From a virus (Duplodnaviria; Heunggongvirae; Uroviricota; Caudoviricetes), in IMG/VR virus record IMGVR_UViG_2534681773_000018: a stretch of 17,705 bases of DNA; one strand, given 5' to 3'. The position numbers and the translations under genes were made by a program. The notes beneath the pieces were generated by a model, which did not search any database, had not been told where the DNA came from, and saw only the letters and a program-made list of their open reading frames with translations. Shown here in pieces: positions 1,609-15,753 of the stretch (the stretch's first letter is position 1; each line of letters begins with the position of its first letter).

Positions 1609-2352
1609 ATGACACAGACAGAATCAGCGATTCTGGCGCACGCCCGGCGATGTGCGCCAGCGGAGTCGTGCGGCTTCGTGGTAAGCACGCCGGAGGGGGA
1701 AAGATATTTCCCCTGCGTGAATATCTCCGGTGAGCCGGAGGCGTATTTCCGTATGTCGCCGGAAGACTGGCTGCAGGCAGAAATGCAGGGGGAGATTGTG
1801 GCGCTGGTCCACAGCCACCCCGGTGGTCTGCCCTGGCTGAGTGAGGCCGACCGGCGGCTGCAGGTGCAGAGTGATTTGCCGTGGTGGCTGGTCTGCCGGG
1901 GTGAGATTCATAAGTTCCGCTGTGTGCCGCATCTCACCGGGCGGCGCTTTGAGCACGGTGTGACGGACTGTTACACACTGTTCCGGGATGCTTATCATCT
2001 GGCGGAGATTGAGATGCCGGATTTTGTGCGTGAGGATGACTGGTGGCGTAACGGTCAGAATCTCTATCTGGATAATCTGGAGGCCACAGGGCTGTATCAG
2101 GTGCCGTTGTCAGCGGCGCAGCCGGGCGATGTGCTGCTGTGCTGTTTTGGTTCATCGGTGCCGAATCACGCCGCTATTTACTGTGGTGACGGCGAGCTGC
2201 TGCACCATATTCCTGAACAACTGAGTAAACGGGAGAGGTATACCGACAAATGGCAGCGACGCACACACTCCCTCTGGCGTCACCGGGAATGGCACGCATC
2301 TGCCTTTACGGGGATTTGCAACGATTTGGCCGCCGCATCGACCTTCGTGTGA
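1609..2352 (+). CDS. K: Tail tip assembly protein K (lambda gpK-like): JAB/MPN (JAMM) domain plus NlpC/P60-like domain
   Basis: 247-aa ORF starting 6 nt after the L stop. Contains a JAMM-type motif HSHPGGLPWLSEAD (H-x-H-x7-S-x2-D) and a C-terminal region with Cys/His residues (GVTDCYTLF, PNHAAIYCGDGELLHH) typical of NlpC/P60. Its 3' end overlaps the I start by about 100 nt in another frame, as K and I do in lambda. Confidence 0.9.
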   Translation: MTQTESAILAHARRCAPAESCGFVVSTPEGERYFPCVNISGEPEAYFRMSPEDWLQAEMQGEIVALVHSHPGGLPWLSEADRRLQVQSDLPWWLVCRGEIHKFRCVPHLTGRRFEHGVTDCYTLFRDAYHLAEIEMPDFVREDDWWRNGQNLYLDNLEATGLYQVPLSAAQPGDVLLCCFGSSVPNHAAIYCGDGELLHHIPEQLSKRERYTDKWQRRTHSLWRHREWHASAFTGICNDLAAASTFV

Positions 2353-2921
2353 AAACGGGGGCTGAAGCCATCCGCGCACTGGCCACACAGCTCCCGGCGT
2401 TTCGTCAGAAACTGAGCGACGGCTGGTATCAGGTACGGATTGCCGGGCGGGACGTCAGCGCGTCCGGGTTAACGGCGCAGTTACATGAGACTCTGCCTGA
2501 CGGCGCTGTGATTCATATTGTTCCCAGAGTCGCCGGGGCCAAGTCAGGTGGCGTATTCCAGATTGTCCTGGGGGCTGCAGCCATTGCCGGATCATTCTTT
2601 ACCGCCGGAGCCACCCTTGCAGCATGGGGGGCAGCCATTGGGGCCGGTGGTATGACCGGCATCCTGTTTTCTCTCGGTGCCAGTATGGTGCTCGGTGGTG
2701 TGGCGCAGATGCTGGCACCGAAAGCCAGAACTCCCCGTACACAGACAACGGATAACGGTAAGCAGAACACCTATTTCTCCTCACTGGATAACATGGTTGC
2801 CCAGGGCAATGTTCTGCCTGTTCTGTACGGGGAAATGCGCGTGGGGTCTCGCGTGGTTTCTCAGGAGATCAGCACGGCAGACGAAGGGGATGGTGGTCAG
2901 GTTGTGGTGATTGGTCGCTGA
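2250..2921 (+). CDS. I: Tail tip assembly protein I (lambda gpI-like), 223 aa
   Basis: 223-aa product beginning MAATHTLPLASPGMARICLYGDLQRFGRRIDLRVKTG with a hydrophobic Gly/Ala-rich central segment, matching lambda gpI in length and sequence; position between K and J. Confidence 0.92.
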   Translation: MAATHTLPLASPGMARICLYGDLQRFGRRIDLRVKTGAEAIRALATQLPAFRQKLSDGWYQVRIAGRDVSASGLTAQLHETLPDGAVIHIVPRVAGAKSGGVFQIVLGAAAIAGSFFTAGATLAAWGAAIGAGGMTGILFSLGASMVLGGVAQMLAPKARTPRTQTTDNGKQNTYFSSLDNMVAQGNVLPVLYGEMRVGSRVVSQEISTADEGDGGQVVVIGR

Positions 2922-2937
2922 TGAAAAACGTTTATGT

Positions 2938-2962
2938 GAAACCGCCTGCGGGCGGTTTTGTC
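2938..2962 (+). other. Stem-loop in the I-J intergenic spacer (aaaccgcc-tgcg-ggcggtttt)
   Basis: Inverted repeat ccgcc / ggcgg with a 4-nt loop, followed by a short T-rich stretch, 20 nt upstream of the J ATG. Could be an attenuator or RNA-processing/translation-control structure; function not established. Confidence 0.3.
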
Positions 2963-2980
2963 GTTTATGGAGCGTGACGA

Positions 2981-5900
2981 ATGGGTAAAGGCAGCAGTAA
3001 GGGGCATACCCCGCGCGAAGCGAAGGACAACCTGAAGTCCACGCAGCTGCTGAGTGTGATCGATGCCATCAGCGAAGGGCCGATTGAAGGTCCGGTGGAT
3101 GGATTAAAAAGCGTGCTGCTGAACAGTACGCCGGTGCTGGACAGTGAGGGGAATACCAATATCTCCGGTGTCACGGTGGTGTTCCGGGCCGGTGAGCAGG
3201 AGCAGACACCGCCGGAGGGATTTGAATCCTCCGGCTCCGAGACGGTGCTGGGTACGGAAGTGAAATATGACACGCCGATCACCCGCACCATCACGTCGGC
3301 AAACATCGACCGTCTGCGCTTTACCTTCGGTGTGCAGGCACTGGTGGAAACCACCTCAAAGGGGGACAGGAATCCGTCGGAAGTCCGCCTGCTGGTTCAG
3401 ATACAGCGTAATGGTGGCTGGGTGACGGAAAAAGACATCACCATTAAGGGCAAAACCACCTCGCAGTATCTGGCCTCGGTGGTGGTGGATAACCTGCCGC
3501 CGCGCCCGTTCAATATCCGGATGCGCAGGATGACGCCGGACAGCACCACAGACCAGCTGCAGAACAAAACGCTCTGGTCGTCATACACCGAAATCATCGA
3601 TGTGAAACAGTGCTACCCGAACACGGCACTGGTCGGCGTACAGGTGGACTCGGAGCAGTTCGGCAGCCAGCAGGTGAGCCGTAATTATCATCTGCGCGGG
3701 CGTATTCTGCAGGTGCCGTCGAACTATAACCCGCAGACGCGGCAATACAGCGGTATCTGGGACGGAACGTTTAAACCAGCATACAGCAACAACATGGCCT
3801 GGTGTCTGTGGGATATGCTGACCCATCCGCGCTACGGCATGGGGAAACGTCTTGGTGCGGCGGATGTGGATAAATGGGCGCTGTATGTCATCGGCCAGAA
3901 TTGCGACCAGTCGGTGCCGGACGGCTTTGGCGGCACGGAGCCGCGCATCACCTGTAATGCCTGGCTGACCACACAGCGCAAGGCGTGGGATGTGCTCAGT
4001 GATTTCTGCTCGGCGATGCGCTGTATGCCGGTATGGAACGGGCAGACGCTGACGTTCGTGCAGGACCGACCATCAGATAAGGTGTGGACCTATAACCGCA
4101 GTAATGTGGTGATGCCGGATGATGGCGCGCCGTTCCGCTACAGCTTCAGCGCCCTGAAGGACCGCCATAATGCCGTTGAGGTGAACTGGATTGACCCGAA
4201 TAACGGCTGGGAGACGGCGACAGAGCTTGTGGAGGACACGCAGGCCATTGCCCGTTACGGTCGTAACGTCACGAAGATGGATGCCTTTGGCTGTACCAGC
4301 CGGGGGCAGGCACACCGCGCCGGGCTGTGGCTGATTAAAACAGAACTGCTGGAGACGCAGACCGTGGATTTCAGCGTGGGTGCTGAAGGGCTTCGCCATG
4401 TACCGGGCGATGTCATTGAAATCTGCGATGATGACTATGCCGGTATCAGCACCGGTGGGCGCGTGCTGGCGGTAAACAGCCAGACCCGGACGCTGACGCT
4501 CGACCGTGAAATCACGCCGCCATCCTCCGGTACCACGCTGATAAGCCTGGTTGACGGAAGTGGCAATCCGATCAGCGTGGAGGTTCAGTCCGTCACCGAC
4601 GGCGTGAAGGTGAAAGTGAGCCGTGTTCCTGACGGCGTTGCAGAATACAGTGTGTGGGGGCTGAAGTTGCCGACGTTGCGCCAGCGCCTGTTCCGCTGTG
4701 TGAGTATCCGTGAGAACGATGACGGCACGTATGCTATCACCGCCGTGCAGCATGTACCGGAAAAAGAAGCCATCGTGGATAACGGGGCGCACTTTGACGG
4801 CGACCAGAGCGGCACGGTGAATGGTGTCACGCCGCCAGCGGTGCAGCACCTGACTGCCGAAGTCACCGCAGACAGCGGGGAATATCAGGTGCTGGCGCGC
4901 TGGGACACACCGAAGGTGGTGAAGGGCGTGAGCTTCCTGCTCCGTCTGACCGTAACAGCGGACGACGGCAGTGAGCGGCTGGTCAGCACGGCCCGGACGA
5001 CGGAAACCACATACCGCTTCACACAACTGGCGTTGGGGAACTACAGGCTGACAGTCCGGGCGGTAAATGCGTGGGGACAGCAGGGCGATCCGGCATCGGT
5101 ATCGTTCCGGATTGCCGCACCGGCAGCGCCGTCTCGGATTGAGCTGACACCGGGCTATTTTCAGATAACCGCCACGCCGCATCTTGCGGTTTATGACCCG
5201 ACGGTACAGTTTGAGTTCTGGTTCTCGGAAAAACGGATTGCGGATATCAGGCAGGTTGAAACCAGCGCGCGTTATCTTGGTACGGCACTGTACTGGATAG
5301 CCGCCAGTATCAATATCAAACCGGGCCATGATTATTATTTTTACGTTCGCAGTGTGAACACCGTTGGCAAATCGGCATTCGTGGAGGCTGTCGGTCAGCC
5401 GAGTGATGATGCATCAGGCTATCTGGATTTTTTCAAAGGCGAGATAGGGAAAACCCATCTGGCTCAGGAGCTGTGGACGCAGATTGATAACGGTCAGCTT
5501 GCGCCTGACCTGACTGAAATCAGGACGTCCATAACGGATGTCAGCAATGAAATAACACAGACCGTCAATAAGAAACTGGAAGACCAGAGTGCAGCGATCC
5601 AGCAGATACAGAAGGTTCAGGTTGATACAAATAATAACCTGAACAGCATGTGGGCAGTGAAGCTGCAGCAGATGCAGGACGGACGCCTTTATATTGCGGG
5701 TATCGGTGCCGGTATTGAGAACACCCCTGACGGCATGCAGAGTCAGGTGCTGCTGGCAGCAGACAGGATTGCGATGATTAATCCTGCGAATGGCAACACA
5801 AAGCCGATGTTTGTTGGTCAGGGCGATCAGATATTCATGAATGAAGTGTTCCTGAAACGCCTGACGGCCCCCACCATTACCAGCGGCGGTAATCCTCCGG

Positions 5901-6478
5901 CATTTTCCCTGACATCAGACGGGAGACTGACGGCGAAAAATGCGGATATCAGTGGCAGTGTGAATGCGAACTCAGGAACGCTCAACAATGTCACGATTAA
6001 CCAGAACTGTACGATTAAGGGCATGCTGGAGGCGACCCAGGTCAGAGGAGATTTCGTTAAAGCTGTATCAAAAGCCTTCCCGAAAAAAGTCGGTACGTGG
6101 GGTAACACGGAAACACCAAACGGTACGGTTACAGTCACCATCAGCGATGATCATAACTTTGACCGCCAGATTATTATTCCGCCCATTATTTTTAACGGTA
6201 TAGCGTATGACGATCCGGGGAGCGGAAATAACCCAGGAGGCACGCGATACACGGGTTATGGTTTTGAAGTTCGCAAAAACGGCGTATTAATCGCATCCAG
6301 AGAAACTAAAGGGGCCATTCCCGGTAGTTACAGTGCAGTTATTGATATGCCGAGTGGCAGGGGAAGCGTCACTCTGGAGTTTAAGATTTTCCAGAAAGGC
6401 AATCAGGGGGCAGGCAATATCACCGACTGTACGGTGATTGTGACCAAAAAAGCCGCTTCCGGCATCAGTATTCGTTGA
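2981..6478 (+). CDS. J: Tail tip attachment / host specificity protein J (lambda gpJ-like), 1165 aa
   Basis: 1165-aa ORF beginning [54 protein letters not shown], matching the lambda gpJ N-terminal and central regions. The C-terminal third (receptor-binding region) differs from what I recall for lambda J. Immediately followed by an intrinsic terminator. Confidence 0.93.
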
Positions 6479-6499
6479 AATATTTATAACCCCAATAAA

Positions 6500-6524
6500 G
6501 GGCGTCAGGAATGACGCCTTTTTT
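6500..6524 (+). terminator. Rho-independent terminator downstream of J
   Basis: Stem ggcgtca (6501-6507) / tgacgcc (6512-6518) with loop ggaa, followed by TTTTTT (6519-6524). Confidence 0.7.
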
Positions 6525-6548: not shown

Positions 6549-7148
6549 ATGCGTAAAGTTTGTGCAGCAATTTTGTCCGCAGCCATTTGTCTGGCCGTAT
6601 CCGGTGCGCCTGCATGGGCGTCTGAACATCAGTCCACGCTGAGCGCGGGGTATCTTCATGCCTCGACGAACGTCCCCGGCAGCGATGATCTGAACGGGAT
6701 TAACGTGAAATACCGTTATGAGTTTACGGACACACTGGGGCTGGTGACGTCATTCAGCTATGCAGGAGACAAGAATCGCCAGCTGACCCGTTACAGCGAT
6801 ACCCGCTGGCATGAAGATTCCGTTCGTAACCGCTGGTTCAGCGTAATGGCGGGGCCGTCTGTGCGCGTGAATGAATGGTTCAGCGCGTATGCGATGGCGG
6901 GTGTAGCTTACAGCCGTGTGTCGACTTTCTCCGGGGATTATCTTCGCGTAACTGACAACAAGGGGAAAAAGCACGATGTGCTGACCGGAAGTGATGACGG
7001 TCGCCACAGCAACACGTCTCTGGCGTGGGGGGCTGGCGTGCAGTTTAACCCGACCGAATCCGTGGCCATTGATATTGCTTATGAATGCTCCGGCAGTGGC
7101 GACTGGCGCACTGACGGTTTCATCGTGGGTGTCGGTTATAAATTCTGA
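6549..7148 (+). CDS. lom: Lom-family outer membrane protein (Ail/Lom/OmpX beta-barrel), 199 aa, prophage moron
   Basis: Signal-peptide-like N-terminus (MRKVCAAILSAAICLAVSGAPAWA), C-terminal GVGYKF beta-barrel terminus with terminal Phe, position directly after J as in lambda. Preceded by GAGAGG ribosome-binding site and flanked by terminators on both sides. Confidence 0.9.
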   Translation: MRKVCAAILSAAICLAVSGAPAWASEHQSTLSAGYLHASTNVPGSDDLNGINVKYRYEFTDTLGLVTSFSYAGDKNRQLTRYSDTRWHEDSVRNRWFSVMAGPSVRVNEWFSAYAMAGVAYSRVSTFSGDYLRVTDNKGKKHDVLTGSDDGRHSNTSLAWGAGVQFNPTESVAIDIAYECSGSGDWRTDGFIVGVGYKF

Positions 7149-7175
7149 TTAGCCAGGTAACACAGTGTTATGACA

Positions 7176-7201
7176 GCCCGCCGGTTCAGGCGGGCTTTTT
7201 T
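7176..7201 (+). terminator. Rho-independent terminator downstream of lom
   Basis: Stem gcccgcc (7176-7182) / ggcgggc (7189-7195), loop ggttca, followed by TTTTTT (7196-7201). Confidence 0.7.
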
Positions 7202-14226: not shown

Positions 14227-14895
14227 CTATTTTTTCCCTGAAGCGGAAAACATTACTACAGTACCTTGAACCTTGGTTTTAACATTCTCGAAATACTCTG
14301 AGAGTATATGTGTTAAGCCTTCTTCGGAATCTTTTGTGTTTGAAAAGATGCCTTTCTGATTGTAAATGCGCATCAGTTTTTGACCGAAGCTATTGTGCAC
14401 AATTCCATCGCCAAGAATTGTGGCTCCGTATAGAGTTCCATCGTCAGTTAAGGCCTGCGCCGCATTGCGTATTACACAGCTTTTTGTAGATATATTTCCA
14501 GGCAGGCAGTGAAGAAGGTAAAACATGGAAATGGAATCAAATTGACCATGTAACGCCGCGGGATAAGGTTCAAAAACATCATGGTTAATTTTATGTTTAA
14601 TTTTTGATTCCCCAGCCCTTGTAGATGCCGCGTTCAGGCTAGCTTCGTTCAAATCCATTAAAGATATCAGACTACTCTCAGGTACGTGAGTAAGGTAAAA
14701 CCCAGTTCCAACACCAATATCCAGATGGTTGTTACCTAAATGTTCCAGAAAGTGTGGAAGAAGGTGTTCCTTTGTAGGACATCCCCATGCAAGCCGATTT
14801 GATACTCCCAAAACCCACCAGTCATAAAGCTTTAGGGTAAGTGGTGTGTAAATTTTAGCCCCATCATCTGTGTTTTTTTTCATTAATTTCACCAT
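14227..14895 (-). CDS. ybcY: Class I SAM-dependent methyltransferase (ybcY-like), 222 aa
   Basis: Contains the glycine-rich SAM-binding motif LDIGVGTGF. Its position between a tfa gene and a tfaX-like remnant upstream of appY-ompT matches the DLP12 gene order as I remember it. The symbol is assigned by synteny and is not verified. Confidence 0.6.
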   Translation of the reverse strand: MVKLMKKNTDDGAKIYTPLTLKLYDWWVLGVSNRLAWGCPTKEHLLPHFLEHLGNNHLDIGVGTGFYLTHVPESSLISLMDLNEASLNAASTRAGESKIKHKINHDVFEPYPAALHGQFDSISMFYLLHCLPGNISTKSCVIRNAAQALTDDGTLYGATILGDGIVHNSFGQKLMRIYNQKGIFSNTKDSEEGLTHILSEYFENVKTKVQGTVVMFSASGKK

Positions 14896-14951
14896 GTTAT
14901 AGTTTTATTTGTGAATTAAATCAATTATGGCAATGAATTACAAGGGGTTAA

Positions 14952-15212
14952 ATGCTGCCGCAGCATAGCGATATTGAAATAGCCTGGTATGCTTCAATAC
15001 AGCAGGAGCCGAATAGCTGGAAGACCGTCACCACACAGTTCTACATCCAGGAATTCAGTGAGTATATTGCGCCACTGCAGGATGCTGTAGATCTGGAAAT
15101 CGCAACGGAGGAAGAAAGATCGTTGCTGGAAGCCTGAAAAAAGTATCGGGTGCTGCTAAACCGTGTGGACACTTCCGTAGCACCAGATATCGAGTGGCTT
15201 ATTCAACCATAA
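14952..15212 (+). pseudogene. tfaX: Tail fibre assembly gene remnant (tfaX-like): tfa C-terminal homology interrupted by an in-frame stop
   Basis: A 61-aa ORF ends at TGA 15135-15137 in the context EAWKKY (TGG to TGA relative to the intact tfa at 12360). The same frame continues [24 protein letters not shown] to TAA 15210-15212. The 3' roughly 140 nt is a diverged direct repeat of the tfa 3' end (12291-12431). Confidence 0.65.
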
Positions 15213-15753
15213 TAAACAGTATGTATATCATAGGTTATTAATTGTGAGTTTTTTCGGTGTGTTATTTGTTTGATGTTATGCTTTTGCGCCCCAAAAGGTT
15301 GTTTAGATGTATTTTATCAATTGATTTTCAATATCGTTTAATAAAGAAAAATTAAGCAAGCTGGATGTTGGTTTTTTGTTAATTGAATGGTTCTAATAAT
15401 GTTTTTTTACTGTTGTTGAATGTGACTTGATAAGAAATGCAAGTAAAAATGATACTCTTTTTATTTTAAATTCAAACGGTTGACATATATATAGCAAGAG
15501 GTTTCAGGTGCGTTGTAGTGAGTTTATGTTAATAAAAAGTATAGTAAGCGTTGAAAAATGTAACTTTGAAATACGTTAGAATAAAAAACAATATACATAT
15601 AATAATTTAATCTTAAATGAAATTTATTAAAATTTGCAAACTATAATTTTGTGTATAAAAATATAAATGCACATCATCCTGATTATGATTGTGTATTTAA
15701 TTGGTTGTTATTTGACTGCTATCAACTTGTTTTAATTTTATGATAGGTGCAAG

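Follow-up and report, generated by a model that had tools for sequence, protein, structure and literature searches.

A terminator-shaped hairpin between the tail genes I and J of a lambda-like phage, a candidate transcriptional boundary beside a cargo site

The stretch of DNA analysed here, hereafter the window, is 17,705 nucleotides long, comes from a virus of the Caudoviricetes and is 97-98% identical to phage lambda across the region of the tail genes I and J. The DNA of its gene I is 97-99% identical to genes of lambda-like phages annotated as 'tail tip assembly protein I'. Neighbouring genes of this module overlap or abut, as the initial annotation had stated, with boundaries at 576 versus 579 for H/M, 905 versus 905 for M/L and 2250 versus 2352 for K/I, and a 5-nt gap for L/K. 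The same annotation had placed a 59-nt spacer with a GC-rich hairpin between I and J, and both are confirmed (Table 1). The hairpin lies on the plus strand, 16-17 nt after the stop codon of I and in non-coding sequence; its stem has 8 bp, five of them G-C, closing a loop of 4 nt (UGCG), and a possible G2938·T2959 wobble pair would extend it to 9 bp. On the 5' side it is preceded by AAA. The Shine-Dalgarno sequence GGAG of J stays outside the hairpin, and the record of lambda imm21 has a ribosome-binding site annotated at the matching position.

Table 1. Features of the I-J junction in the window, with the corresponding late-gap hairpins of lambda in lambda coordinates.
Feature	Position	Strand	Basis or remark
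Gene I (tail tip assembly protein)	2250-2921	+	ORF list; TGA stop at 2919-2921
I-J spacer, 59 nt, non-coding	2922-2980	+	read as the empty form of a cargo (moron) insertion site
Hairpin, 5' arm AAACCGCC	2939-2946	+	sequence, folding; G2938 can add a G·U pair
Hairpin, tetraloop TGCG (UNCG class)	2947-2950	+	sequence
Hairpin, 3' arm GGCGGTTT	2951-2958	+	sequence, folding
T-rich tract TTTTGTCGTTTAT (U-tract, interrupted after four U)	2956-2968	+	sequence
Shine-Dalgarno sequence of J, GGAG	2969-2972	+	sequence; 8 nt before the ATG
Gene J (central tail fibre / host specificity protein)	2981-6478	+	ORF list; ATG at 2981
Possible micro-ORF MKNVYVKPPAGGFVVYGA, 18 codons	2921-2977	+	sequence; probably not a gene
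Lambda (NC_001416, L335), late-gap hairpins	6099-6116, 7163-7180, 15462-15483, 18920-18935, 19612-19633	+	

The J protein of the window has 1165 aa, compared with 1132 aa in lambda (3399 nt). Its N-terminal 300 aa are 99-100% identical to lambda-type J; thus the difference in length must lie further downstream, possibly in the receptor-binding end. Beyond J, a lom-like gene (6549-7148) is flanked by two further terminator-like hairpins. The one in the J/lom gap, at 6498-6521, scores on both strands, and the one at 7175-7196 reads AGCCCGCC-GGTTCA-GGCGGGCT followed by T5.

RNA folding gives the I-J hairpin a free energy of -13.1 to -14.4 kcal/mol and a probability of ~1 in the predicted ensemble. 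Judged by folding energy alone, the site is weakly unusual (z = -1.8 for 81 nt; 10 of 200 shuffled sequences fold equally well). The anatomy says more. An intrinsic terminator has a hairpin rich in G-C, its stem about 5-14 bp long and its loop short, and a U-tract of 7-9 nt directly on the 3' side. The window has such a GC-rich hairpin on the transcribed strand, after a stop codon and in non-coding sequence, and the minus-strand version of the stem has no T-run after it. The U-tract UUUUGUCGUUUAU begins with four U that lie partly inside the stem and is then interrupted, with T in five of the first eight bases. The bubble-edge motif GC(U)7RU is absent by inspection, since GGCGGUUUUGUCG holds no GC-N7-RU in phase; the HK97-type sequence GGC-U7-AU (GGC-T7-AT in DNA) fits it exactly. 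This motif comes from a preprint as a predictor of terminator strength and is not an established criterion of membership (bioRxiv 10.64898/2026.05.29.728758).

The hairpin of the window is therefore predicted to be at best a weak to moderate terminator, because its U-tract is interrupted (UUUUGUCGUUU) and lacks GC(U)7RU, and because the stem begins so close behind the stop codon of I that ribosomes partly suppress termination. In reporter constructs, ribosome interference leaves termination at 0.12 to 0.8 at 17-18 nt from the stop (PMC4824070). A standard terminator scan omits the I-J hairpin, as the G-T extension of the stem consumes the T-run; a purpose-written detector was used instead. The promoter scan found no promoter-like site in 2922-2980. 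Searches against Rfam 15 with window positions 2500-3400 and four related loci returned chance-level matches only (E >= 0.43, bit scores far below gathering). Features of a leader-peptide attenuator are likewise absent: with a hairpin probability of ~1 there is no competing fold, and neither the frame nor the peptide of the short ORF is conserved. The literature search found no named lambda terminator between I and J and no report of a 3' end there.

We surveyed the sequence upstream of J in 334 sequences around J homologues, namely 333 loci and the first 6 kb of the window, taken from phage records with annotation, from IMG/VR and from genomes at one per species, with the stop of I and the start of J located in each; the alignment-based genome scan was run with four sequences. 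These comprise 172 distinct J-upstream sequences, and the I-J gap was measurable in 168 (at least 20 nt in 128, less than 20 nt in 40). A plus-strand hairpin with a T-run lies within 100 nt before the ATG of J in 121 of the 128 distinct junctions with the wider gap, whereas the minus strand has one in 10 of 128. Junctions with a gap below 20 nt score in 2 of 40 cases, and weakly. Dinucleotide shuffles of the same spacers gave a mean of 5.0 scoring sequences and a maximum of 12, and windows of 110 nt within J-coding sequence scored in 24 of 3629 cases (0.7%). Seven junctions do not score: in three of the HK97 type the hairpin has a single A·G mismatch, in two of the PPompW type it is placed further upstream, in phi80 gene morF fills the gap, and one has a sodC insert. 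By comparison with relatives, a terminator-shaped hairpin stands before J far beyond chance.

The collection also held J sequences 98-100% identical to lambda on short contigs of unrelated genera, among them Shewanella, Neobacillus, Kitasatospora, Bradyrhizobium and Paenibacillus (L257, L259-L263, L265-L267, L271-L276 and others). Such contigs are almost certainly lambda control DNA contaminating the assemblies. The record 'Campylobacter phage CJLB-4' (H15) is likewise 97.6% lambda.

Hairpins with unrelated stem sequences recur before J in the Shiga-toxin-phage type, Serratia phage Stoker, a Limnobaculum prophage, Pseudomonas phage PseuP_222 and the T1-like phages. The initial annotation had named a lack of conservation among lambda-like phages, or too weak a fold, as grounds for refutation, and neither applies. 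The hairpin is kept in lambda, in HK97 and HK022, in the Shiga-toxin-phage types, in T1-like phages and in others, and the stem changes in a compensatory manner. In a comparison of 52 distinct sequences of the lambda and HK97 types, pairing holds in 98.9% of stem cells and falls to 33-73% when the partner columns are slid as a control. Two stem pairs switch between the lambda type and the HK97 type, A-U/G-C and G-C/A-U, and G·U intermediates exist, such as CCGCC/GGTGG in one relative (L101); the double changes mostly separate two clades and so represent few independent events. Changes on a single side of the stem are nearly all G·U on the plus strand, a pattern that indicates selection on the sense RNA of the late operon and not on duplex DNA.

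Within the lambda type the stem is invariant while the loop and both flanks vary, and among relatives the loop varies freely with the stem kept (TGCG, TCCG, TCAG, TTTT, TTCG and others). The lambda stem is kept even in Citrobacter and Edwardsiella prophages whose J N-terminus is ~70% identical, and the T-rich tract is conserved in lambda-type relatives including these prophages. In the unrelated hairpin of the Shiga-toxin-phage type, ACAGGCATCC-TCCG-GGATGCCTGT followed by TGTTTTTG, a U-A pair is replaced by C-G, and a U·G intermediate exists. The pattern of substitution supports purifying selection on the stem structure as sense-strand RNA.

The relatives with long I-J gaps (234-879 nt) show where additional DNA enters. 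The extra DNA lies between the stop of I and the hairpin, and the hairpin still adjoins J. Clustering of the inserts divides the 54 distinct long gaps into 21 groups. Annotated cargos are the morons gp22 and gp23 of HK97 and gp22 and srb of HK022. Prophages of the Shiga-toxin-phage type and a Citrobacter prophage, two different lineages, carry a copper/zinc superoxide dismutase gene, sodC (PF00080), in reverse orientation, with Pfam E-values of 7e-32 and 9e-35; examples are an IMG/VR prophage with Shiga-toxin-phage-type J (L182, gap 851 nt) and Citrobacter meridianamericanus (L283, gap 714 nt). Further cargos are a UPF0257 lipoprotein and several small proteins without a family. One hairpin family is found under different cargos, which means that the hairpin belongs to the phage backbone and is not imported with each insert. 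It follows directly after the stop codon of forward-oriented cargos, and would serve as their terminator.

The moron transcription units of lambdoid phages are reportedly the subject of Juhala et al. 2000. In these phages a moron is a unit of promoter, gene and terminator (summarised in PMC3594210). The I-J gap of the window is not itself a moron, as it has 59 nt, no gene except the unconserved 18-codon frame and no sigma-70 promoter; from the comparison of junctions, we read it as the unoccupied form of the I-J cargo site.

The Stx2a phage WGPS8 (L083, 982-1219) and two similar loci (L084, L085) have I-J gaps of about 235-342 nt with two hairpins. The first stands right after the stop of I, is preceded by about ten A and resembles a minus-strand terminator; a separate plus-strand terminator-like hairpin lies 41-51 nt before J. 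The ~130 nt between them hold a short frame, MKI..ELFF (31-41 aa), and neither an Rfam match nor a consensus promoter was obtained for this segment, which might represent a small gene or small RNA that lacks annotation. None of the known prophage small RNAs considered for the longer spacer of the Shiga-toxin-phage type belongs there: AgvB/AsxR (PMC4104026), the Pas small RNAs (bioRxiv 10.64898/2026.05.13.724894) and HnrS (PMC13502914) all have their loci close to pR'/Q or to the lysis genes. The Tai defence paper (PMC11364771) is not about I-J either. In HK97-like phages the K-I junction mirrors I-J, with a moron (gp20) or nothing and then an annotated terminator 9 nt before I (L094, 1300-1325, which is HK97; K-I gap of L093 and L088).

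We propose, with moderate confidence, that the I-J hairpin is a boundary element of the Rho-independent terminator type, acting on the sense strand of the late operon. The late genes of lambda depend on Q-modified polymerase for their transcription, and such polymerase does not respond to terminators. As the late RNA emerges, the GC-rich stem would close under its UNCG-type tetraloop, with the U-rich tract after it, and polymerase without the Q antiterminator modification would be released before J. Such unmodified polymerase may come from stray promoters or, in relatives, from cargo (moron) promoters that are active in the prophage. During lytic growth, Q-modified polymerase from pR' would pass through the hairpin; read-through by the Q-modified late complex is also treated in PMC10695390 and PMC7547250. 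As no promoter lies behind the hairpin in the window, J would depend on this read-through. The hairpin would then form the fixed right-hand border of the cargo site, and would set the tail-tip assembly genes (...K, I) apart from the host-range gene J. The sequences themselves show the structure of the hairpin, its conservation and covariation, its specificity of strand and position, and the cargo hotspot. We infer from sequence comparison both the termination of unmodified polymerase at I-J and its being the reason for the selection. Against the terminator role stands the empty site itself, which has no known upstream promoter to insulate against.

It is also possible, though we consider it doubtful, that the resident terminator makes I-J a landing pad and is kept in empty sites for this reason, and its action may be gated by translation through the TGATG-coupled micro-ORF. 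If this is true, an incoming gene needs only a promoter, as the backbone hairpin provides its 3' end and shields J.

The initial annotation had offered that the hairpin modulates J translation or acts as a partial terminator, and so adjusts the ratio of J to the upstream tail-tip proteins. The terminator part is supported in kind by the terminator anatomy, and the adjustment of the ratio is not borne out. Indeed, I is adjacent to J or overlaps it (-8 to +14 nt), and no hairpin is present, in ES18 and ES18-like prophages, a Mannheimia phage, Burkholderia phage Bcep176, the Dhillonvirus Gluttony, and prophages of Providencia, Proteus, Xenorhabdus, Gilliamella and others, so that expression of J does not need the hairpin. 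Spacer and hairpin are therefore a lineage-restricted addition, which speaks against a general role in J dosage. Read-through by Q-modified polymerase, the uncovered Shine-Dalgarno sequence and the interrupted U-tract also argue against tuning of the ratio. PMC5737525 gives no per-gene values for I or J.

The main rival to the terminator-type boundary is an RNA decay barrier. The hairpin would block 3'-to-5' exonucleases after cleavage and guard the ...K-I message, or it would protect the J message as a 5'-proximal stem-loop, and its terminator shape would be incidental or ancestral. This would account for purifying selection on the stem in sense RNA although Q-modified polymerase ignores terminators; hairpins also follow the very highly expressed genes D and E in lambda, which fits segmental mRNA stability, and the near-certain folding of the I-J hairpin suits a barrier as well. 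We nevertheless regard it as unlikely. All independent hairpin families before J carry a T-run, for which a pure stability hairpin would have no need; the I protein is not made in many copies, so that its message has no evident need of protection; and the relatives with abutting I and J do without any hairpin. That the hairpin is an orphan terminator left by a deleted cargo, or a palindrome used as the recombination joint between the I side and the J side, with no present function in RNA, is quite improbable. Relatives do carry cargo exactly at I-J, the two sides are mosaic (the J of phage Ayreon is 99% and its I 78% identical to the window), and the lambda-type U-tract looks degraded compared with the HK97 type. 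However, the stem is held paired through compensatory and plus-strand G·U changes while loop and flanks drift, which is not neutral decay and concerns RNA, not duplex DNA. The hairpin-only form with a gap of 50-60 nt is the commonest state in the lambda-type and HK97-type lineages, and the persistence of the stem in the distant Citrobacter and Edwardsiella prophages also argues against a relic.

A translational role is the weaker alternative to the decay barrier and seems to us very improbable: the hairpin leaves the Shine-Dalgarno region uncovered, and folding predicts this region to be more accessible when the hairpin is present than when it is disrupted. In this explanation, which is in essence that of the initial annotation, the spacer uncouples J from I and provides J with a ribosome-binding site of its own, and the hairpin keeps the Shine-Dalgarno sequence open, or else the micro-ORF relays ribosomes from I to J and melts the hairpin, so that only translated transcripts pass. 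The Shine-Dalgarno region (computed on 2970-2973) is 76% unpaired with the hairpin and 48% with the stem disrupted in silico, figures that fit the first version but are predictions only. Consistent with a translational role, the hairpin has a fixed distance of 15-25 nt from the ATG of J in the lambda and HK97 types; in the Shiga-toxin-phage and T1-like types, however, it lies 41-55 nt away, and many relatives translate J with I abutting. The micro-ORF starts at a TGATG overlap with the stop of I, crosses the hairpin and ends 3 nt before the ATG of J, and ribosomes near a terminator are known to suppress termination (PMC4824070). It is open in all lambda-type variants, but in those with a 60-nt spacer it runs in another frame, has 22 aa and ends 8 nt past the start of J; it is absent from the HK97, Shiga-toxin-phage and T1-like types, and an open frame of 18-22 codons is expected by chance in roughly 40%. 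As its peptide and frame are not conserved, it is probably not a real gene.

The one sizeable gap in a packed tail-tip module is a selected, terminator-shaped boundary before the host-range gene and not slack. It offers an annotation landmark in lambda-like prophages, where cargo such as sodC or the lipoprotein gene is to be sought between the stop of I and the hairpin. For phage engineering, the 16-17 nt between the stop of I and the hairpin mark a naturally tolerated insertion point. The understanding of lambda gene expression is unchanged.

The comparison of the I-J junction with that of lambda, as proposed in the initial annotation, finds the same hairpin at lambda 15462-15483, with identical stem, loop, tail and Shine-Dalgarno sequence. 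The lambda gap has 60 nt and that of the window 59 nt; the missing base lies in the 5' part of the spacer, and the two differ by a few substitutions, all of them outside the stem. The I-J gap carries no annotation in the lambda RefSeq record (NC_001416). In lambda, every gap of at least 40 nt in the late operon (D/E, E/FI, I/J, J/lom, lom/stf) holds a plus-strand hairpin with a T-run, and these hairpins are unannotated in the inspected parts of that record. Other records do name the element. Escherichia phage Ayreon (MF807953) has the same element under the label 'terminator' at 14895-14934, with the loop TCCG in place of the TGCG of the window. In HK97 (NC_002167, annotation of the Hendrix laboratory) a homologous 'putative terminator' is given at 15107-15129 before J, and HK022 and HK544 have the same element. 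The HK97 element lies 16-17 nt before the ATG of J, with the same architecture and position as that of the window, and its stem can be aligned: CCACC/GGTGG stands where the window has CCGCC/GGCGG, two compensatory changes apart, and G·U intermediates link the two. HK97 and HK022 differ from the window in two respects: their moron genes (gp22, gp23/srb) stand between I and the hairpin where the window has none, and the HK97-type U-tract is uninterrupted (U6-8) where that of the window is interrupted. The hairpin forms the terminator end of the lambdoid moron units at I-J in relatives, while the gap of the window has no gene and no promoter.

The virulent T1-like phages (Drexlerviridae) show a related arrangement with a further part. 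Their I-J gap has 77-87 nt and holds a strong plus-strand hairpin with T6-8 in 31 of 33 distinct sequences, and in one of these phages, Klebsiella phage Sushi, a 'terminator' is annotated before J. An invariant TATAAT lies 5-8 nt past the T-run and TTGCGC is found in the hairpin loop 17 nt upstream, so that J of these phages appears to have its own promoter behind the terminator. In the loci inspected (L336, L337, L340-L377; about 50-90 nt before J) the TTG in the loop is invariant, and terminator and promoter appear to overlap. The loop is invariant in the T1-like phages, whereas it varies freely in the lambda type, and the window, with TATGGA in place of TATAAT, has no -10 element behind its T-run. 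One Pseudomonas phage and one Serratia phage each have a hairpin of their own before J. Since temperate and virulent phages alike have a terminator before J, its rationale cannot be prophage silencing alone. The hairpin of the window is thus an element of a kind already annotated, present in lambda and its relatives; what is modestly new is the systematic picture of a resident terminator beside J, with variable cargo upstream of it.
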